This document shows, one piece after another, positions 10,794-36,176 of a stretch of DNA of 43,584 bases (position 1 is the stretch's first letter; each line of letters opens with the position of its first letter). Source of the stretch: Tubiluchus corallicola (Eukaryota; Animalia; Priapulida); assembly GCA_030141605.1 (NCBI GenBank), contig JAQGDQ010001380.1, positions 1 to 43,584 on the forward strand. Reading direction: 5' to 3'. The position numbers were made by a program, and so were the translations under genes. Below the pieces are notes generated by a model, which saw only the letters and a program-made list of their open reading frames with translations, was not told the DNA's origin and made no database searches.

Positions 10794-11427
10794 ATGAAGT
10801 TGCTGATCACAGCTGGAGTTTACCTAATAACTCTGTTCACAGTTGGTAAGGCGCAGTGCCCTTGTGATCCATCTTGGCAGTGCAACTGTTTCCCCATAGA
10901 AGTTACCACAGCGGACTTAAGCAAGAATAATCATACAAACTCACCAAGCACGTCTATCAACTGTCAAATGATTTGCTTGTGGAAACACCTGCCCCCAGCA
11001 AATGTGCAGAACCTCTCAAATACATTACCAAACGCCATTCGTGAACTCAAGGTTATGAACTACGCCAGAACTGAACTACCTGACAAATTTTTGACAGGAA
11101 AAATGATCGAGAAACTGATAATATTCGAGTCGAACGAGTTGAAACGCATAGGTGAAACCACGCTGGCAGCCGACGCCATTGGTGTATGTTTGTGGAACCT
11201 GGAAGAGCTAAGAGCAATTGCCTCTAGGGCCTTCCAAGGAATGAAACATTTGGAATACCTCCACATTATGCATTGTTGGAAACTAATATCAATTACAGAG
11301 CATTTATCTTTCATTCACAGTCCAAATTTACGCAACATTGCTATTGATGGAACATCTATAGAACGACTCCGAGAACCCAAACTACACAGCAGAGCACTGA
11401 ATAGAATTTTTATAATTTCTTTGACAG
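10794..11427 (+). CDS. Nested LRR-mucin surface protein paralog 1, exon 1 (signal peptide, LRRNT, ~5 LRRs)
   Basis: Signal MKLLITAGVYLITLFTVGKA, cap CPCDPSWQCNC, LxxLxLxx repeats; donor G|GTGACT, phase 1; lies in CGRRF1 intron 2 on the opposite strand. Confidence 0.85.
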
Positions 11428-11444
11428 GTGACTGGTAACAAAGC

Positions 11445-11730
11445 AACAGGAGAAAAGTCACAGAAATGTCACGATTTTGGCTAGGAAAAAAATCACAGGA
11501 GAAAGTGACAATTAATTTTGGTTGTGGTTAGGGTTATGGCAATTTATTTTTTCTTGAACCTTTTTCGCCTGTGACTTTTTTACCTGTGACTTTTTTATCT
11601 GTGACTTTTTAGCTGAATATTTTTATTTGTGACTTTTGTCTATGGCTTTTATACCTGAATATTTTTATTTGTGACTTTTCCTGTGACTTTCTTATCTGTG
11701 ACTTTTTACCTGTGATTTATTAGCTTGGAT
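11445..11730. repeat. Insertion with GTCAC/GTGAC inverted sub-repeats (MITE-like) just after the LRR1 donor
   Basis: GAAAAGTCACAG units on the left versus CTGTGACTTTT units on the right; a donor-like TTGACGGGTGA reappears at ~11735. Confidence 0.5.
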
Positions 11731-11762
11731 TCCCTTGACGGGTGAATTGCGATTAGACTAAA

Positions 11763-12043
11763 GGAGCATTCAGACTAGCGAGTTTTCTCAGCAACTAACT
11801 CACAAGTGCATTCAGACTAGAGAGCAAAGTTACTCTCGCTTACACTCACTTATCCATTCACTGCAAGAAGTGTCAAGAGTAACTCGCCAAAGCGTTCACA
11901 CCACGCAGTGAATCAACTCGCAGCAACTGTCGGAGAGTTTGCAATTTCTTGCCGACAGTACCTCGCAAAGGAGTAACTCACATTTGCGAGTTTGCTGTCA
12001 CAGAGAAAACATGCGACAGAAAACTGCCTGGTCTGAATGCACT
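11763..12043. mobile_element. MITE, PIF/Harbinger-like termini
   Basis: GGAGCATTCAGACTAGCGAGTTTTCT versus inverted AGAAAACTGCCTGGTCTGAATGCACT; superfamily assignment is tentative. Confidence 0.55.
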
Positions 12044-12305
12044 TGCGAGTTATTTGATTATCTGCAGATGTTTTTGCAGATAGTCTGAACACGCCTTTTT
12101 ATGCATTACTATTGACAAATTTTCACCAAAGCAGAAAAGCAATGGTGACATGCAAACGGTTTCATGTACAATATGGCACATCTTTTCTATATCGACATTG
12201 AACTTAATTATGTGACTTTAATGGTGAAATTATCGTACGTCCGATAATCTCAGAAAATCTGTCTATTATTATAAGCTATGCATTTCAGTCATTATGTTTT
12301 TGCAG

Positions 12306-13177
12306 ATAATCAAATCAAATGCAACTGCGACATAAACTGGGTTTTCGGCAAACCGTGGAAGCTACATGAGATTGAATGCAAAAAATGGAGAAACTCCGGA
12401 TATAGTACACTTAAATCGAATAATCTCACATATTGCTACACCACTAGAGTGAGCTCAACTGTTGAAATGTCTACTACAGGAAGAGGGTCAACCAGAATGT
12501 CATCAAAAATAAGCTCATCTAGTACTCTGTTACACAGTGAACTCCATAGAGACACAGTTACACAGTCCATAGAGAGCTCAACTGCTCAACCTTCTACAAA
12601 GAGCTCAACCATCAAACTGTCTACAGTGAGCTCAACCAATAGGTCATCTACAAAGAGCTCAACCATCAATCTGTCTACAGTGAGCTCAACCACCAAGTCA
12701 TCTACAGTGAGCTCAACCACCAAGTCACCTACAGTGAGCTCAACCAATAGGTCATCTGCTGTGAGCTCAACCACAAAGTCATCTACAGTGAGCTCAACTG
12801 CTAAGCTGTCTACAGAGAGCTCACTGACAACTATTAAGTTATCTACAGTGAGCTCAACCACTAAATCATCTACAGTGAATTCAACTACTAAGTCACCTAT
12901 ATTGAGTTCAACCACCAAATCATCTACAGTGAGCTCAACTGCTAAACTGTCTACAGAGAGCTCATTGACAACTATAAAGTCATCTACAGCAAGATCAACC
13001 ACCAAGTCGCCTACAGTAAACTCAACCATTAGCCCATCCACAGCGAGTTCAACTACAGACCAGTCTAGTACCGCAAGCAAGATGTACGGCATACAGTGTG
13101 AAACGCATGTAATTGCAGTAATACTTTTTTTACTGTCTTTACAAATGCCAGCATTTCTGTATGTAAAAAGTTGTTAG
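12306..13177 (+). CDS. Nested LRR-mucin paralog 1, exon 2 (LRRCT, Ser/Thr/Lys stalk, hydrophobic tail); spliced protein 501 aa
   Basis: TTTTGCAG|AT phase 1 gives DNQIKCNCDINW; 27-bp STVSSTTKS repeats; C-terminal VIAVILFLLSLQM; AATAAA at 13213. Confidence 0.85.
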
Positions 13178-15616: not shown

Positions 15617-16167
15617 ACGTTTATCGAAATCATATCGCAAGTTCTTTTCGTTTATCGAAATCGTATCGCAAGTTCTTTTCGTTTATCGAAATCGTATCGC
15701 AAGTTCTTTTCGTTTATCGAAATCGTATCGCAAGTTCTTTTCGTTTATCGAAATCGTATCGCAAGTTCTTTTCGTTTATCGAAATCGTATCGCAAGTTCT
15801 TTTCGTTTATCGAAATCGTATCGCAAGTTCTTTTCGTTTATCGAAATCGTATCGCAAGTTCTTTTCGTTTATCGAAATCGTATCGCAAGTTCTTTTCGTT
15901 TATCGAAATCGTATCGCAAGTTCTTTTCGTTTATCGAAATCGTATCGCAAGTTCTTTTCGTTTATCGAAATCGTATCGCAAGTTCTTTTCGTTTATCGAA
16001 ATCGTATCGCAAGTTCTTTTCGTTTATCGAAATCGTATCGCAAGTTCTTTTCGTTTATCGAAATCGTATCGCAAGTTCTTTTCGTTTATCGAAATCATAT
16101 CGCAAGTTCTTTTCGTTTATCGAAATCGTATCGCAAGTTCTTATCGTTTATCGAAATCGTATCGCAA
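15617..16167. repeat. Near-perfect 31-bp minisatellite (~18 units), probably within a MITE at ~15259-16191
   Basis: Unit CGTTTATCGAAATCGTATCGCAAGTTCTTTT; flanks TACTGATGGGAATC / GAGTCCCCTCACTA form weak TIRs. Confidence 0.9.
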
Positions 16168-16754
16168 TTTTTTTATAGAGTCCCCTCACTACCTGAATCA
16201 TCAATTTAATAATCTAATCTTGAATTATCAATTTAACTAAATCTCTTTACTAAATGATCATTAGACACCCCTGGGCATGAAAATTAATGTTGTCAGTTGA
16301 ATTAATTAGTTAATCCAAAATAAATTAAATGCTATAAATTGGGTCAATAGAATAGCGTCAATCTTGCGTAAACTATAATTAGCATTTTAATTTTGAGTGA
16401 AACACAGGTCAAGTTTGTTGTGTAATAATAAAAAACTTTGGATTAAGAATACAGCGAATCAACAAGAAGAATTAATACATTTTTGATTCAACTTCATCAT
16501 GTCCAGGTTTATTGAGTAAAGATGAGTCCACTGATTTTGGACAATAACAATACATTTTTCAATTTGCTGACTGGACAAATATTTAGTTGTACAAGTTTTT
16601 GTAATAATTTTGTAAAGGAGAGGTAAGATTTGTGCAATCTGTGCACAATTTCTGAATCTTTACTTATAAGATACATGTAGCACCACGGTATGAGTTTACT
16701 AATTGTTCTGCAAAGAAGAGGAGAAAGACAAAGCATTTACTGATATTATGTTAA

Positions 16755-17211: not shown

Positions 17212-17323
17212 TTAATATCAGTATTGGTCAGTGGATTCACTGATTTAGACGTCATAAGCAATGTTGTCTTAATCTCTTATTAAAGTCTCTTTTATCATTG
17301 AAATCATTTTCTTTTTTAGGCTA

Positions 17324-18064
17324 ATGAACGCTTCTCTGGATTTCAAATCAATAGAAAAGCTTCTGTCGGACGAATATTCTCTATTAACGAAGATCGAGCA
17401 CAGTAGAAATGTTTCACTATCCCCCATGTACATAGGCAGGTGGAGAAGCGGCATAGAGGCGTTGCTTGACAAGGAAATGAATGTGTTTTCCGAACAGTTG
17501 CAAGGCGTCATGGTCGCGTACCGGAAACTGAAGATCCGGCAAAGGATGGGCTCTCTACAGGACTGCCAAACTCATGTCAATTTCACCGTTTTGTACGACG
17601 CCATTGTGTTTCGACCGCACGTTGGCTGCTTCCTAAAAGGAGTCGTCAACAAAATCAGCCTATCGTTTATCGGATGCATCGTGCACGGGTGGTTCAATGC
17701 GTCCATTCATAAGCCGAAAAGTGGCGCCTCGGAGTGGTCGCAGCTTCAGTTAAACTTTGGCGATGAAATTGTATTTCTAGTGGAGAATGTGAAAACTCGA
17801 AATAACTTCATACACATTAATGGCAAGTTGACTGAAGATTGGGTTGAAAGAACAAAGAAACTTTGTGAGGAGAATAAGAACTCTGTCGTGAAAGAGCCGT
17901 TGACGTTTTCTTCCGCAGTTTCTCACAATAGTACAGACTTAGTGTACGGCGATGGTGTCAAGAAAGAAGAAGAGGAAGAAAGAGTGAGTGAAAAGCACAA
18001 AAGGACAGATGAAATGGACCCTCCTAAAAAGCATAAACATAAAAAAAGCAAAAAGAGCTTGTGA
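17324..18064 (+). CDS. POLR1F: DNA-directed RNA polymerase I subunit RPA43 (TWISTNB)
   Basis: VSLSPMYIG, LQGVMVAY, IVFRPHVGCFLKGVVNKISLSFIGCIVHGWFNASI (Rpb7-like N-terminal and OB domains) and a Lys-rich tail; splice acceptor ends at 17319, 4 nt before the ATG. Confidence 0.92.
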   Translation: MNASLDFKSIEKLLSDEYSLLTKIEHSRNVSLSPMYIGRWRSGIEALLDKEMNVFSEQLQGVMVAYRKLKIRQRMGSLQDCQTHVNFTVLYDAIVFRPHVGCFLKGVVNKISLSFIGCIVHGWFNASIHKPKSGASEWSQLQLNFGDEIVFLVENVKTRNNFIHINGKLTEDWVERTKKLCEENKNSVVKEPLTFSSAVSHNSTDLVYGDGVKKEEEEERVSEKHKRTDEMDPPKKHKHKKSKKSL

Positions 18065-18690
18065 CTGGATACAAAGTGTTTGTGATTGGATACAGAGAGT
18101 TTGTGATTGGACGCAGAGAGTTTGTGATTGGACGCAGAGTTTGTGATTGGATACAGAGTTTGTGATTGGATACAGAGAGTTTGTGATTGGATACAGAGAG
18201 TGTTTGATTGGACACAGAGAGTTTGTGATTGGACGCAGAGTTTGTGATTGGATGCAGAGACGATTTGTGATTGGACAGAGAGAGTTTGTGATTGGATACA
18301 GAGAGTTTGTGATTGGACAAAGAGAGTTTGTGATTGGACACAAAGAGTTTGCAATTGGACACAGAGGGTTTGTGATTGGATACAGAGAGTTTGTGATTGG
18401 ACGCAGAGAGTTTGTGATTGGATACAGAGTTTGTGATTGGATACAGAGAGTTTGTGATTGGATGCAGAGAGAGTTTGTGATTGGATACAGAGAGTTTGTG
18501 ATTGGACGCAGAGTTTGTGATTGGATACAGAGTTTGTGATTGGATACAGAGAGTTTGTGATTGGATGCAGAGAGAGTTTGTGATTGGATACAGAGAGTTT
18601 GTGATTGGACAAAGAGAGTTTGTGATTGGACACAAAGAGAGTTTGCGATTGGACACAGAGGGTTTGTGATTGGACACAGAGTTTGTGATT
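18053..18690. repeat. 20-24-bp minisatellite (GAGTTTGTGATTGGATACAGA) x ~29 beginning at the POLR1F stop
   Basis: Visible tandem units; the first unit overlaps the TGA at 18062-18064. Confidence 0.95.
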
Positions 18691-21184: not shown

Positions 21185-21488
21185 TCACGGTAGATAGTCT
21201 GAAATTGTCCAGGCGATCACGGCCACCGCAGCAGCCAGTAACAACGCTGAGCAAGAAGGTACGACGTCTCTTCCCGCCGACTTCACCGTCGACATGACGG
21301 CAACGTGGCTGAGTTTAAACTGGAGACCTTTGTTCAGTTCAAGAGGAAAGAATTCTTTCGTTTCGTAGAAATAAATCCTGAAGAGTTGTCGAACGTCGGC
21401 GTTGGACGTCATGACGAATTCAACGATCTCTTGATTCCATCTGATCGTGAAAGCCGCTCCGAGGTAATCGAGGTGGGTGATGGTCATT
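21185..21488 (-). CDS. PGGHG: PGGHG/ATHL1-like GH65 glucosidase, last exon (hydrophobic C-terminus)
   Basis: TCCAG|A ATG phase 2; MTITHLDYLGAAFTIRW resembles the GH65 C-terminal domain; TGA at 21185. Confidence 0.75.
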
Positions 21489-21604
21489 CTGGATAATAAA
21501 GAAATAAAGATTATTAAAGGAAAGGTAAACATATTTACTATGTACAGTGTCAAACACTCATATTGTGATTCCGTGCTGCTTTGTGTGTTGTGAGGCTGTC
21601 AAGT

Positions 21605-28680: not shown

Positions 28681-29260
28681 ATGAAGTCGTCAATCAAAGT
28701 TGGATTTTATCTGATGTCTCTGATCACGGTGTGTAGTGGATGGAGCGCATGTGATGATCCGTCTTGGCAGTGCAGATGTGATTATTGGGAAGATTTGGAT
28801 TGCTTTTGGGGAAATTTGTCCCTAACAGACGTACAGAATATTTCAAATACATTACCAAAAGATATCGACATGCTCACGATTTACAACTATTCAAACAGTG
28901 AATTTCCAGACAAATTTTTGGCAGGAGAAAAGATGAACACTTTGCACATTAGTCACTCCAAGCAGCTGAAACGCATCAATGAAACCAGTATAGCAGCTGA
29001 CATCAGGATATTAGCCTTGCGTGCCCTCAGTGCTTTAGAGACAATTGACTCAATGGCATTCCAAGCAATTACAAGACTGGAGGCTCTATATATTTTGGAC
29101 TGCTACCAGCTGACATCGATTACTGGGCACTTGTCTTTTACACAAAGTCCAAATCTGATTCACATTTACATTGAACGGACATCCATGGAAATACTTAAGG
29201 AGCCAAAACTACACAGCAGCGTACTGAATAGCAGCAATTTTGTACGGATTAACTTTTGGG
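28681..29260 (+). CDS. Nested LRR-mucin paralog 2, exon 1
   Basis: Signal MKSSIKVGFYLMSLITVCSG, cap CDDPSWQCRC, LRRs colinear with paralog 1; donor G|GTGAGT, phase 1; a CAG acceptor directly before the ATG suggests an upstream UTR exon. Confidence 0.85.
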
Positions 29261-29491
29261 GTGAGTTCAATTCAAATTTTTGACTAACAACTTTCAGCAG
29301 AGCACGAAGCCAGTGTGGTCAATTGAATACATTTATGTGTCATAAGATTTAATGAAAACAGTGTCCTTATAATAGGTGAGCAAGTTTGTCTTACGTGATG
29401 CTTTAGGTAAAACTTCTTTCACTATTCTTATAAGTTTTGTATTTTAATGGTTGTTTTGCTGTTGTTGTTATCGTTGTTGCCATTTTTATAG

Positions 29492-30540
29492 AAAATAATT
29501 TCACATGCGACTGTGACATCAGTTGGGTTTTCAACAAACCGTGGAAACTAGTAAGAGATTTTCAATGCCGACAATCAGAAAATGGAAATTACAAAACAGC
29601 TACAAAAGCAGACTTTGACTATTGTTACGATGCAACAAACCAAACCACTGAGTCATCTACAGAGAGCTCAACCACTGAACCGTCTACAGAGAACTCAACC
29701 ACTGAGCCATCTACAATGAGCTTAACCTCTGAGTCGTCTACAGTGAACTCAACCACTGAGTCATCTACAGAGAACTCAACTACTAAGCCGTCTACAGAGA
29801 ACTCAACCACTGAGTCGTCTACAGAGAACTCAACCACTGAGTCGTCTACAGAGAACTCAACCACTGAGTCATCTACAGAGAACTCAACCACTGAGCAGTC
29901 TACAGAGAACTCCACCACTGAGCCGTCTACAGAGAACTCAACCACTGAGCCGTCTACAGAGAACTCCACCACTGAGCCGTCTACAGAGAACTCAACCACT
30001 GAGCCGTCTACAAAGAACTCAACCACTGAGCCGTCTACAGTGAACTCAACCACTGAGCCGCCTACAGAGAACTCAACTACTGAGCTGCCTACAGTGAACT
30101 CAACCACTGAGTCGTCTACAGTGAACTCAACTACTGAGCTGCCTACAGTGAACTCAACCACTGAGCCGTCTACAGTGAACTCAACTAGTGAGCCGTTTAC
30201 AGAGAACTCAACCGCTGAGTCGTCTACAGTGAACTCAACCACTGAGTCGTCTACAGGGAACTCAACCACTGAGTCGTCTACAGGGAACTCAACCACTGAG
30301 CCGTCTACAGAGAACTCAACCACTGAGTCGTCTACAGAGAACTCAACCACTGAACCGTCTACAGTGAGCTCAACTAGTAAGCCATGTACAGTGAGTTCAA
30401 CCACTAGGCCACCTACAAAGAACTCAATCACTACAACATCAGCTAGCTCTTCAAGTGAGCTGTATGGCACACAATGTAAACTGAATGAAGTCTTTGCACT
30501 AGTATTCTTAGTTTTAGCAAGTCACCTTTTTTACCTGTAA
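29492..30540 (+). CDS. Nested LRR-mucin paralog 2, exon 2 (LRRCT, acidic STENSTTEP stalk, hydrophobic tail); spliced protein 542 aa
   Basis: TTTTATAG|AA gives ENNFTCDCDISWVFNKPWKL; 27-bp repeats; ends VFALVFLVLASHLFYL; AATAAA at 30765. Confidence 0.85.
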
Positions 30541-31985: not shown

Positions 31986-32235
31986 ACGACCACAGTGTAT
32001 GTTTAATTTACATAGAGCTATATTAAAATAGCATTATAAATGACTGGAGGCTATAATTTATATAATAAGCACGTTTAATAATTGCACTGTTTACATTACT
32101 AATGCATTTTTAGAACAGAATAATGCAATATATGCCATTCTGATGCTTCAAATAAGTAAAAATGTCGCTGAAAAATGAAAATTGGTTTCAGCAAAGTTAA
32201 AATGAAATGTGTGTTATTAATTGGGAAAAGGTGAA

Positions 32236-33280
32236 ATGTTCAAGGTCGTTAAAACAAAACGTTGCTAAACAGGGAGTCGGTAATCTAATGTTCAGGGTCG
32301 TTAAAACAAAACGTTGCTAAACAGGGAGTCGGTAATCAAATGTTCAGGGTCGCTAAAACGAAACGTCTCTAAACAGGGAGTCGGTAATCTAATGTTCAGG
32401 GTCGTTAAAACAAAACGTTGCTAAACAGGGAGTCGGTAATCAAATGTTCAGGGTCGCTAAAACGAAACGTCTCTAAACAGGGAGTCGGTAATCTAATGTT
32501 CAGGGTCGTTAAAACGAAACGTCTCTAAACAGGGAGTCGGTAATCTAATGTTCAGGGTCGCTAAAACGAAACGTCTCTAAACAGGGAGTCGGTAATCAAT
32601 GTTCAGGGCGTAAACGAAACGTCTCTAAACAGGGAGTCGGTAATCTAATGTTCAGGGTCGTTAAAACGAAACGTCTCTAAACAGGGAGTCGGTAATCTAA
32701 TGTTCAGGGTCGTTAAACGAAACGTCTCTAAACAGGGAGTCGGTAATCAATGTTCAGGGTCGTAAAACGAAACGTCTCTAAACAGGGAGTCGGTAATCTA
32801 ATGTTCAGGGTCGTAAAACGAAACGTCTCTAAACAGGGAGTCGGTAATCTAATGTTCAGGGTCGCTAAAACGAAACGTCTCTAAACAGGGAGTCGGTAAT
32901 CTAATGTTCGGGTGCTAAACGAAACGTCTTAAACAGGGAGTCGTTATGTTCGGGTCGTAAAAAACGTCTCTAAACAGGGAGTCGGTATTAATGTTCAAGG
33001 TCGTTAAAACAAAACGTCTCTAAACAGGGAGTCGGTAATCTAATGTTCAGGGTCGTTAAAACGAAACGTCTCTAAACAGGGAGTCGGTAATCTAATGTTC
33101 AGGGTCGTTAAAACGAAACGTCTCTAAACAGGGAGTCGGTAATCTAATGTTCAGGGTCGTTAAAACGAAACGTCTCTAAACAGGGAGTCGGTAATCTAAT
33201 GTTCAGGGTCGTTACAACGAAACGTCTCTAAACAGGGAGTCGGTAATCAAATGTTCGGGCTCGTTAAAATGAAACGTCGC
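32236..33280. repeat. 52-bp minisatellite x ~20 derived from transposon subterminal sequence
   Basis: Unit AATGTTCAGGGTCGTTAAAACGAAACGTCTCTAAACAGGGAGTCGGTAATCT; runs into the right TIR. Confidence 0.92.
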
Positions 33281-33780
33281 TAAGCGAGGACTTACTGCAA
33301 ATTTAAATTCCAGCATTGACGGTTAGACGCAGCCATTTTAACGGTGAGTCGCTTGAAACAAGTTTAGATAACAAAGTTTAAAAATACACAGAGCATCCGT
33401 AGCACATGTTGTCAATAAGATCAAAAATAGTTTTTTTGCGAGCCTGTGGTGCGCGCTGGGAAGTTGAGTCGGTAATGCTTTACCAGTCGACACATCTAAT
33501 TTATCTTAAATTGTTAAGTTCTTTCTAGTTAAATAAGTCTTATAAGCAGGTGAGGGTAATGCAAAGTAATATGACTTTGTGTGGAAAGTTTCTTGGGGAG
33601 CACTTGAATATTGTTTTTTCTTCCCTATTAAGCAAAGCAGCTCTCAGTAAAACTACATTAGTACAGCAGTTTTCTCCATTATCATGGAAGCAACCACGAC
33701 TGCTGTTATATTGATCATACTCATTCACAAAAAAAAGCAAAATAAGCAAAAACAACCAACTTACTAACTAACTAACTTAC

Positions 33781-34020
33781 TAGGCTTTCCCTCTGCGCTC
33801 AACGTCTCGTTATCCTTGAAGTTGTACCCGTCAAACTCTGGATGATACTGGTACGTATGACTGAAAGGCATGTGCAACTTCTCGGCAATTTCCGACCAAC
33901 TCTTGGGAAATGTCTTCTCCGGATATGTCCTCTTCGGAAGCGTCAGACTGAGGTTGGCGACGTAGTTGGTGTAGATGGAGTTGTTGACTGGAAAGTGCCA
34001 TTCGTCCGGCGGCATAACTC
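33781..34020 (-). CDS. PGGHG: PGGHG-like exon with catalytic PDE motif
   Basis: GVMPPDEWHFPVNNSIYTN...YHPEFDGY; 240 nt, phase 1/1. Confidence 0.92.
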
Positions 34021-34266
34021 CTGGAGAAGAGAAAGATAAGAAGTCAGGTAAGAGTGGAAATCTTCTTTGTAGTAACTGATGAGAGGCGCTAAATTAGAAA
34101 AATCAATTTAGATAAATAAAAAAACTTTGCCCATACCATGGAAATAAATACATACGATAACTCTTACTACATGCATGCCAAGGTCATCTTACTGAACTTA
34201 TAATCAAATGACAAAATTACCGACAAACATTAACATTTTAGCGGACACACGTCTCGAAATACAAAC

Positions 34267-34464
34267 CATAAATGTTGTATTCCTCCCCGTCCCACCATGC
34301 ACGACTTTCCCAAAACGTTGCAATCTGTGTAAGCACCTCCTCCGCAGAATCCTTAAATGCCGGGTCGATGGTCATCGTCAAGTACTGCCAGAATGCGAAG
34401 GCGATGTCTCCGGTGATGTGGTGCTCCAATGAAGTCGCAGGGTACCACGGACACACATCAATAC
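34267..34464 (-). CDS. PGGHG: PGGHG-like exon
   Basis: GIDVCP...EHHITGDIAFAFWQY...IATFWESR; phase 1/1. Confidence 0.92.
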
Positions 34465-34514
34465 CTAAAATATGTTTCATATCCACAGTTTCTTTTGAAA
34501 AATCAAAAATCATT

Positions 34515-35415
34515 AGTAGACAGGGCCACCCTTAGGAGGTTTCGGACCCTACTGGAAACAATTTTGGTAAGCCAAAAATTCCCAGTTAGCAGACAGGGCC
34601 ACCCTTAGGAGGTGTGAGGCCTAGTGGAAACAGTTTTGGTAGGCGCCAGGTTACGAACTAGTAGATAGGGCCAGCCTTAGGAGGTTTCGGACCCTACTGG
34701 AAACAATTTTGGTGAGCCAAAGGTTCCCAGTTAGCAGGACAGGGCCAACCTTAAGAGGTGTGCAAGACCCTACTGGAAAGAATTTTGGTAGGCGCAAGTT
34801 TCCGAACTAGTAGACAGGGCCAGACTTAGGAGGTTTGGGGCCCTACTGGAAACAGTTTTGGTAGGTGCCAGGTTACGAGCTAGTAGACAGGGCCAGCCTT
34901 AGGAGGTTTAGGCCCTACTGGAAACAATTTTGGTGAGCAAAAGGTTCCCAGTTAGCAGGACAGGGCCAACCTTAAGAGGTGTGCGAGACCCTACTGGAAA
35001 GAATTTTGGTAGGCGCAAGGTTCCGAACTAGTAGACAGGGCCAGCCTTAGGAGGTTTCGGACCCTACTGGAAACAATTTTGGTGAGCCAAAGGTTCCCAG
35101 TTAGCAGGACAGGGCCAACCTTAAGAGGTGTGCGAGACCCTACTGGAAAGAATTTTGGTAGGCGCAAGTTTCCGAACTAGTAGACAGGGCCAGACTTAGG
35201 AGGTTTGGGGCCCTACTGGAAACAGTTTTGGTAGGTGCCAGGTTACGAGCTAGTAGACAGGGCCAGCCTTAGGAGGTTTAGGCCCCTACTGGAAACAATT
35301 TTGGTAAGCCAAAGATTACCAGTTAGCAGACAGGGCCACCCTTAGGAGGTGTGAGGCCCTACTGGAAACAGTTTTGGTGAACACTGCAAGTAGGTTCCCA
35401 GATAGTAGACAGGAC
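34515..35415. repeat. ~73-76-bp satellite x ~12 with three monomer variants
   Basis: Each unit contains ACAGGGCCA..CTTA.GAGG...CCCTACTGGAAA. Confidence 0.9.
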
Positions 35416-35992
35416 CAGCTGGCGCCATCTTGCGAAATTAAGTTTCTAGAATCGGGAAAATATAATACCACAGCCTTTCTATACCTACAACAGTATGAAT
35501 GCAATCATAATATGCAATTAAAAAGTAGTGATGCATGATGCAAGTCAATGAACTCAACAGCTACATTTTTAGCCAAAACAATTTATAATACAAGACATAC
35601 AAGACAGTAATTTAGTCACATCATACTGTTACAAGAATCCTATAGGTTTTATAGATATTTAAAAACTCGCTTAATCACCTAGGCAACGGAGCGATTTCGC
35701 GTCTGCGTACTGCTGCGTGATACGTATTCGGTAGGTAGCGATCGGGTGCAAATGAATACGGATCGCGCACACGCAACACGGATTACGCATTACGCATCAC
35801 ACAGAAACACTTCTACGTGTTTAGATACAAATTGTTGTACATGCGTTACGGATCACGCATCATGCATTACGTATTACATGCACATGGTGTTGTACTTTAA
35901 GGAGTTTTATTATCACAAAAAGACAATTTGAGAAGACTACAGGCTGTACAGGTTATCAAGATTTTAATAGAGTAATAGCTTTAGATTGGTAC

Positions 35993-36176
35993 CAGTAAAA
36001 GCACTTTCCCAAGGGTACATTGCTCCTGACCAAGTGAAATTCTTCGCCTTCTCCTGCGCCCCCTTTAGATGAAGAATTCGTATGCGCAGCTGCAGACGAG
36101 CCATTTCCGGTTGCAGGAGCAAGATGGGAGGAAACATCCAGGTTTCCTGATCCCAGAAAACATGTCCCAAATAGTC
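35993..36176 (-). CDS. PGGHG: PGGHG-like exon
   Basis: DYLGHVFWDQETWMFPPILL...GAMYPWESAFTG, canonical GH65 motifs; phase 0/1. Confidence 0.95.

Follow-up and report, generated by a model that had tools for sequence, protein, structure and literature searches.

The window, by which we mean the whole stretch of 43,584 nucleotides (43.6 kb), is eukaryotic DNA of ~36% GC with many tandem repeats, and it carries two related leucine-rich repeat (LRR) genes on the + strand, g1 (10794–13177) and g2 (28681–30540). The g1 gene is composed of 10794–11427 and 12306–13177 and encodes 501 amino acids, and g2 is composed of 28681–29260 and 29492–30540 and encodes 542 amino acids. Both share the same layout, namely a signal peptide, an LRRNT cap, ~6 LRRs, an LRRCT cap, a Ser/Thr stalk and a GPI-type tail; the splicing, signal peptide, GPI anchor and glycosylation of the stalk are predicted. 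The features of the two genes are as follows.

28681–29260, + strand: g2 exon 1, with signal peptide, Cys-capped LRRNT, LRR1–5 and the start of LRR6 (open reading frame, GT donor and spliced frame; structural model with pLDDT 87.6; LRR solenoid with Z 16.2).
28864–28893, + strand: g2 LRR1 strand segment, positions 1–10 (register and model strands).
28933–28962, + strand: g2 LRR2 strand segment (register; three or more sequence types within a single sample).
29002–29031, + strand: g2 LRR3 strand segment (register and model strands; loose ends in reads).
29077–29106, + strand: g2 LRR4 strand segment (register and model strands; loose ends in reads).
29155–29184, + strand: g2 LRR5 strand segment (register and model strands; a loose end in reads).
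29261–29491, + strand: predicted g2 phase-1 GT-AG intron of 231 bases, between the last LRR strand and the LRRCT (joined frames).
29492–30540, + strand: g2 exon 2, with LRRCT, acidic Ser/Thr stalk, hydrophobic C-terminal tail and stop (spliced frame and hydropathy).
29643–30432, + strand: stalk-coding 27-base repeat of g2, 29.3 copies (25 N-glycosylation sequons in the stalk).
30475–30537, + strand: g2 hydrophobic tail without a cytoplasmic part, a predicted GPI signal (hydropathy).
10794–11427, + strand: g1 exon 1, with signal peptide, LRRNT, LRR1–5 and the start of LRR6 (spliced frame and alignment).
10902–10964, + strand: g1 LRRNT insertion of ~21 residues relative to g2 (edges alignment-dependent).
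11037, 11106, 11175, 11250 and 11328, + strand: starts of the g1 LRR1–5 strands (alignment to g2).
11428–12305, + strand: predicted g1 phase-1 GT-AG intron (spliced frame).
12306–13177, + strand: g1 exon 2, with LRRCT, basic Ser/Thr stalk, hydrophobic tail and stop (degenerate 27-base repeat at 12571–12964).

The single phase-1 GT-AG intron was predicted in each gene because it joins the two reading frames and restores the LRR–LRRCT motif, and its position is identical in g1 and g2. The exon 1 products are 48% identical, and the hydropathy profiles of both proteins peak at the two ends only. The stalk between the LRRCT and the tail comprises 215 residues in g1 and 278 in g2, 58–59% of which are Ser or Thr, and is basic in g1 (23 K+R, 7 D+E) but acidic in g2 (5 K+R, 43 D+E). 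At the DNA level, the two stalks (12565–13067 and 29643–30432) are built from related 27-base repeats with 70–75% identity, although their charges are opposite; the g1 stalk is rich in Lys, and the g2 stalk is rich in Glu with a sequon in almost every repeat. The LRRNT also differs between the copies, with six Cys in g1 and four in g2 and with a loop of different length (10902–10964 in g1, about 28773–28810 in g2). In addition, an unpaired-looking cysteine occupies an exposed face position of LRR3 in g1 (residue 132, 11187–11189). No third copy or LRR fragment was detected in the 43.6 kb window.

Several other elements lie in the window. Between g1 and g2, an uninterrupted open reading frame (17273–18064, + strand) encodes the OB domain of RPA43, an RNA polymerase I subunit (E 1e-7). 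On the − strand, an exon with a C3HC4 RING finger occurs at 2467–2811, which may correspond to the end of CGRRF1, and a glycoside hydrolase family 65 gene is represented by three exons at 33767–36176. At 21185–21598 (− strand) lies a 137-residue open reading frame that matches no Pfam family, is richer in GC than its flanks and turns hydrophobic towards its C-terminus; it is possibly the terminal exon of a gene for a further anchored protein. Dispersed repeats of 400–640 bases with 83–90% identity, some of them inverted (2873–3499/37165–37795, 4222–4622/21605–22013/24581–24968 and 16751–17215/20266–20711), are probably non-autonomous mobile elements. Long minisatellites are also present (15618–16174, 18054–18690, 32235–33283, 39101–40286 and others), and these account for spurious long open reading frames in the window. 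The capped extracellular type of the LRRs and the genes next to them point to an animal, presumably an invertebrate.

Pfam matches for the LRR region of g1 and g2 were weak and below the cut-off, and exon 2 matched no Pfam family. In contrast, a family profile built from a 16-sequence alignment matched LGI1 and LRRC15 with E about 1e-17. A model of g2 exon 1 computed from the family alignment reached a pLDDT of 87.6 and placed strands at residues 64–68, 84–91, 107–114, 135–141 and 161–167, whereas the model from two sequences was poor (pLDDT 59.6) and its fold search was weak. The good model superposed on the FSH receptor (FSHR) with a Z-score of 16.2 (rmsd 2.2 over 155 residues), on LGI1 with a Z-score of 16.0 and on hagfish VLRA with a lower Z-score of 13.1. 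Foldseek with the same model returned no match at E ≤ 0.001, the top entries all being LRR proteins, and the Atlas structure search returned generic LRR clusters only. The fold shared with FSHR, LGI1 and VLRA shows no function. In both proteins, LRRNT and LRRCT caps flank the LRR solenoid and further domains are lacking, as in extracellular LRR_Only proteins; both also combine a signal peptide with a short C-terminal hydrophobic stretch without a cytoplasmic tail, as in the GPI class of these proteins; the tail was judged by a manual criterion that is also used in PMC2235866. They do not have the organization of Toll-like receptors, as the stop codon lies at the hydrophobic tail or a few residues past it and no Pfam TIR domain was found in exon 2.

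The divergence between g1 and g2 was evaluated in an ungapped block of 134 residues (g2 residues 50–183). All strand and linker peptides quoted in the preliminary description are present and in register, with a g1/g2 offset that is constant at 20 residues. The placement of two linkers required correction: they had been located within 28855–29220, but VQNISNTLP starts at 28831 and WVF.KPWKL sits in exon 2, past the 231-base intron. The register was taken from the LxxLxLxx motif and agrees with the strands of the pLDDT 87.6 model, so that motif and strand positions together support the predicted concave and exposed status of the variable positions. As the same description had held, the exposed strand positions differ almost throughout, with only 2 of 25 residues identical (positions 2, 3, 5, 7 and 8 of LRR1–5), whereas the connecting segments are conserved, with 68 of 109 non-face positions identical (Fisher p = 7e-7). 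Positions 3, 5 and 7 alone show no identity (0/15), and identity on the face is at chance level, random pairing giving 6.4%. By comparison, 16 of 20 residues are identical at core positions 1, 4, 6 and 9, and 33 of 63 at polar non-face positions (p = 8e-5 against the face). Furthermore, when the mask was shifted by −12 to +12 residues (24 shifts), 6–18 of 25 positions were identical and never 2, a value that is unique to the true register. The substitutions on the face are radical, with a mean BLOSUM62 score of −1.2 compared with 0.0 in the linkers. The ungapped block and the constant offset rule out misalignment as the cause. The convex stretch is generally the more variable part of an LRR (PMC2235866), and the concave contrast in g1 and g2 thus reverses the LRR default. 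These results confirmed that the face-versus-scaffold pattern is real and strong.

Whether this pattern reflects positive selection depends on how the divergence is modelled. Simple counting revealed no significant excess, with a pN of 0.66 on the face and a pS of 0.55 elsewhere (bootstrap P(pN > pS) = 0.88). Neutral simulation yielded two or fewer identities with P = 0.02, 0.09, 0.22 and 0.36 at distances of 0.8, 1.0, 1.25 and 1.5, respectively. A custom-written pairwise codon model with one shared divergence time for the whole block gave an omega of 0.25 off the face, whereas omega on the face was saturated above 1, with a lower 95% bound near 1.7. The likelihood ratio test for a face omega above 1 was significant in all four model variants (p = 0.005–0.017), as was a parametric bootstrap (p = 0.003, 2000 replicates). 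Moreover, omega exceeded 1 at only one of 25 mask positions, the true register, and in none of 1000 random polar masks, and the sign was kept in all five leave-one-LRR-out fits. The diversifying selection proposed in the preliminary description therefore found support under a shared divergence time, but the excess of omega over 1 was lost (p = 0.64, omega about 0.8–1) when the strand segments were given a divergence time of their own. This second model fits equally well (lnL −376.7 vs. −377.4), and silent differences are commoner in strands (11/17) than in linkers (18/51; p = 0.048, or p = 0.15 for third positions only).

Both the fit of the second model and the excess of silent change in the strands are consistent with an explanation without positive selection, in which the face is simply unconstrained, or the strand segments are older than the linkers owing to gene conversion of the linkers or shuffling of segments; the neutral simulation, unrejected at distances of 1.0 or more, is also compatible with it. 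The conservation of other polar surface positions (33/63) argues against this explanation, and the linker dS of about 0.9 rules out a recent homogenisation of g1 and g2. From g1 and g2 by themselves, selection is not distinguishable from strand segments that are older or were exchanged.

Closer variants of g2 are found in public DNA runs. Six public DNA runs were listed, four of which contain the stretch, and four were aligned to g2. Three of the four cover all 30 g2 bins, with many contigs 80–99% alike; of the 225 variant rows, 46 loose ends and 369 pieces, the data used here comprise 40, 22 and 26, respectively. One contig (record 17 of run X4), whose rows were assigned by matching depth and include 27 of its 29 differences, was evaluated over codons 45–107. 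Changes in this contig affect 4 of the 10 face codons and 4 of the remaining 53 codons (p = 0.017). There are 7 amino-acid-changing base changes over 24.5 face sites compared with 2 silent changes over 39.8 sites, and omega is about 6.8 (p = 0.014). The LRR1–2 strands carry 7 amino-acid-changing and no silent changes, where 3.7–4.8 silent changes would be expected under neutrality (p = 0.016–0.034); the result weakens to p = 0.03–0.06 if both of the remaining differences are silent, and to p = 0.11–0.16 if each changed codon is counted once. This test concerns one contig and two repeats, and the contig may be an allele, a paralog or an ortholog of g2. The LRRNT loop of the same contig has a net 11 extra bases. 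Its differences around this loop (about 28773–28810) are mostly amino-acid-changing, in a part of the alignment that is gapped.

The LRR block contains six of the 22 loose ends, which were read by hand. Each of these six spans strand codons without breaking the frame, and 20 of 22 face residues were changed while 13 of 16 core residues were kept (one incomplete codon excluded), the three core changes being hydrophobic swaps. Since loose ends are divergent by definition, only the position and codon pattern of these changes are taken into account. In one LRR3 loose end, all 8 base changes fall at positions 3, 5, 7 and 8, and three interleaved or following Leu codons are identical. For LRR2, at least three sequence types were found within one sample (runs X1 and X3), indicating several loci or pooled animals, and similar variants recur across two samples. 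A further cluster of variants with a small indel is located at 29552–29556, just past KPWKL in the LRRCT, where g1 and g2 also diverge; this site is possibly a second variable loop.

The closer variants favour selection. The complete lack of silent change in the strands of the X4 contig argues against strand segments of greater age, and a loose end in which all face codons changed but the core codons between them stayed identical also counts against divergence without positive selection. We consider the explanation without positive selection rather unlikely, and positive selection on the face likely but not proven.

To place the two genes in a wider family, we used a profile search against 1.84 billion representatives, which yielded 70 matches at E ≤ 0.001. 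The family as discussed here consists of 15 single-stretch matches that are under 50% identical to each other; together with P0031, a multi-repeat protein of another type that was dropped, they are the 16 matches that were inspected. All 15 relatives are unnamed singletons from Logan. The LRRCT motif is present in 13 of them, 10 of the 15 also have a hydrophobic tail, and a long stalk was found in P0008 only. The reading frames of the relatives run through the position of the intron, which suggests that they derive from spliced transcripts. When 14 relatives were aligned (P0034 excluded), column identity was 0.08 on the face, 0.28 in the linkers and 0.19 at polar non-face positions (p = 2e-5), a contrast that is partly saturation at about 30% identity. 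In the family tree, computed without P0017, P0057 and P0034, g1 and g2 are sisters (100/99), which is the sole resolved grouping, 8 of 11 inner branches being open.

Word-index homolog searches gave no homolog among 491 candidates for g2 exon 1 and none among 1203 for the g1/g2 pair; with the family alignment, 3 of 4197 candidates were retained, of which two were members already known and the third was a longer protein with a weak match. A JGI metagenome locus, the only one from 332 candidate stretches, was rejected as a chance match of 18 residues on a bacterial-looking contig. A stalked, GPI-type invertebrate LRR family with a hypervariable concave face was not found described in the full-text literature searched, although a gene list of a genome paper may hold one. 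The LRR family of g1 and g2 thus appears undescribed.

These data are best read as showing hypervariable recognition receptors of the cell surface that belong to a germline-encoded family. On balance, we incline to the view that g1 and g2 encode GPI-anchored surface recognition receptors whose concave face was driven apart by selection for different foreign ligands, most likely microbial. The gene structure, LRR fold, divergence pattern, corresponding DNA variants and wider family are demonstrated by the data, and the function is our inference. Once the gene had duplicated, purifying selection (omega about 0.25) would have maintained the scaffold, with replacements taking place in the face residues and in the LRRNT loop, and each copy may bind a ligand of its own. 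The glycosylated stalk is predicted to lift the LRR domain above the cell coat. Since neither protein has a cytoplasmic part, a partner such as a co-receptor would be required for signalling, or the proteins would act in capture, as opsonins or adhesion molecules, or once shed. The fast and continuing turnover of the face points to non-self ligands. A more far-reaching version, which we put forward tentatively as a possibility, is a convergent germline "VLRB-like" repertoire in an invertebrate lineage, with many stalked, GPI-anchored mini-LRR receptors whose faces turn over rapidly by selection and strand-segment exchange, forming a large innate or allorecognition system without somatic assembly.

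The same selection could also act through another kind of ligand, if the proteins were polymorphic and served allorecognition or gamete recognition, binding either one another or a partner from the same species that co-evolves with them. Several sequence types occur within and between samples, the long stalk and tail-less anchor suit cell–cell contact, and the basic g1 stalk contrasts with the acidic g2 stalk. However, nothing in the data is specific to this explanation; the 15 divergent clusters would probably fit a repertoire better than one polymorphic locus, and invertebrate LRR-only proteins with a tested function mostly bind microbes (PMC10178686). We regard it as no more likely than the explanation without positive selection.

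Alternatively, g1 and g2 could be developmental or neuronal surface tags, comparable to Nogo receptors, OMgp and Connectin, that diverged once to bind endogenous ligands and were then fixed. They share the domain class of these proteins (PMC2235866), and LRR proteins of neuronal or endocrine function match them best in sequence and fold, but turnover of the face at a divergence as shallow as that of a contig with about 93% identity would be unexpected for fixed partners, which makes this explanation quite improbable. A somatic origin of the variants by cassette-type gene conversion, as in VLR assembly, is very improbable: the anatomy is VLRB-like and only part of the strand changes is common to the variants, as a patchwork might produce, but g1 and g2 are both complete and contain an intron, no LRR donor cassette was detected when the 43.6 kb window was scanned in six frames with the profile (best other match E 1.1), and similar variants occur in two samples, as expected of germline copies.

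Germline-encoded recognition receptors with a diversified concave face therefore remain our preferred reading, and several known systems can be compared with them. In plant LRR resistance proteins, the xxLxLxx residues are hypervariable and selection acts on exposed strand residues. The likeness to g1 and g2 lies in this pattern of selection; the architecture is unrelated, the g1 and g2 caps being animal-type LRRNT and LRRCT.

The comparison with VLRs made in the preliminary description holds for anatomy and fails for membership. As in VLRB, a signal peptide, an LRRNT, few LRRs, an LRRCT, a low-complexity stalk and a GPI-type end follow one another, and the variable residues lie in rows on the concave sheet (PMC13590357). 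Unlike VLRB, g1 and g2 are complete genes in genomic DNA, with all LRRs in an open frame and an intron before the LRRCT, their repeats have 23, 23, 25 and 26 residues, and length variation occurs in the LRRNT. Moreover, VLRs have intron-less LRR coding, a Thr/Pro stalk and eight C-terminal cysteines (PMC6058257, PMC13590357), compared with an intron, a Ser/Thr stalk and 2 Cys after the LRRCT in each of g1 and g2. Complete genes, an intron, a different stalk and a window without cassettes indicate that g1 and g2 are not VLRs.

Among invertebrates, VLR-like or LRR-only proteins are known singly, such as Bf66946 (PMC4731796), FrLRR (PMC10199209) and LvCD14L and others (PMC10178686). In amphioxus, the VLR-like LRR-only protein Bf66946 uses residues of its concave face to bind bacteria, and with the LRRNT loop of lamprey VLRC it offers a likeness in its short, non-vertebrate LRR-only solenoid and LRRNT insertion (PMC4731796). 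This comparison is by description, the accessible part of that source mentioning no stalk, GPI-type tail or selection analysis, and g1 and g2 differ in that the length of the LRRNT insertion varies between copies. The GPI-linked LRR_Only proteins CD14, OMgp, Connectin and the Nogo receptors share the domain layout and fold (PMC2235866), with 14–20% identity to g2 in structural alignments. Subfamily Ia of the expanded sea urchin TLRs is encoded by many germline genes, and its sites under positive selection cluster on the concave beta-strands (PMC3367398), but these receptors have a transmembrane segment, a TIR domain and over 20 LRRs, compared with ~6 LRRs in g1 and g2.

Diversification of the concave LRR face as a principle is already known from VLRs, plant resistance genes and sea urchin TLRs. 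What appears to be new is the family itself, and g1 and g2 join VLRB-like anatomy to genes that are complete and ordinary. Should both selection and an immune function be confirmed, the family would represent a germline route by which a receptor repertoire of the VLRB type was reached convergently, a model of the type of gene from which VLRs could have arisen, and a compact natural binder scaffold in which 25 tolerant positions are already mapped.
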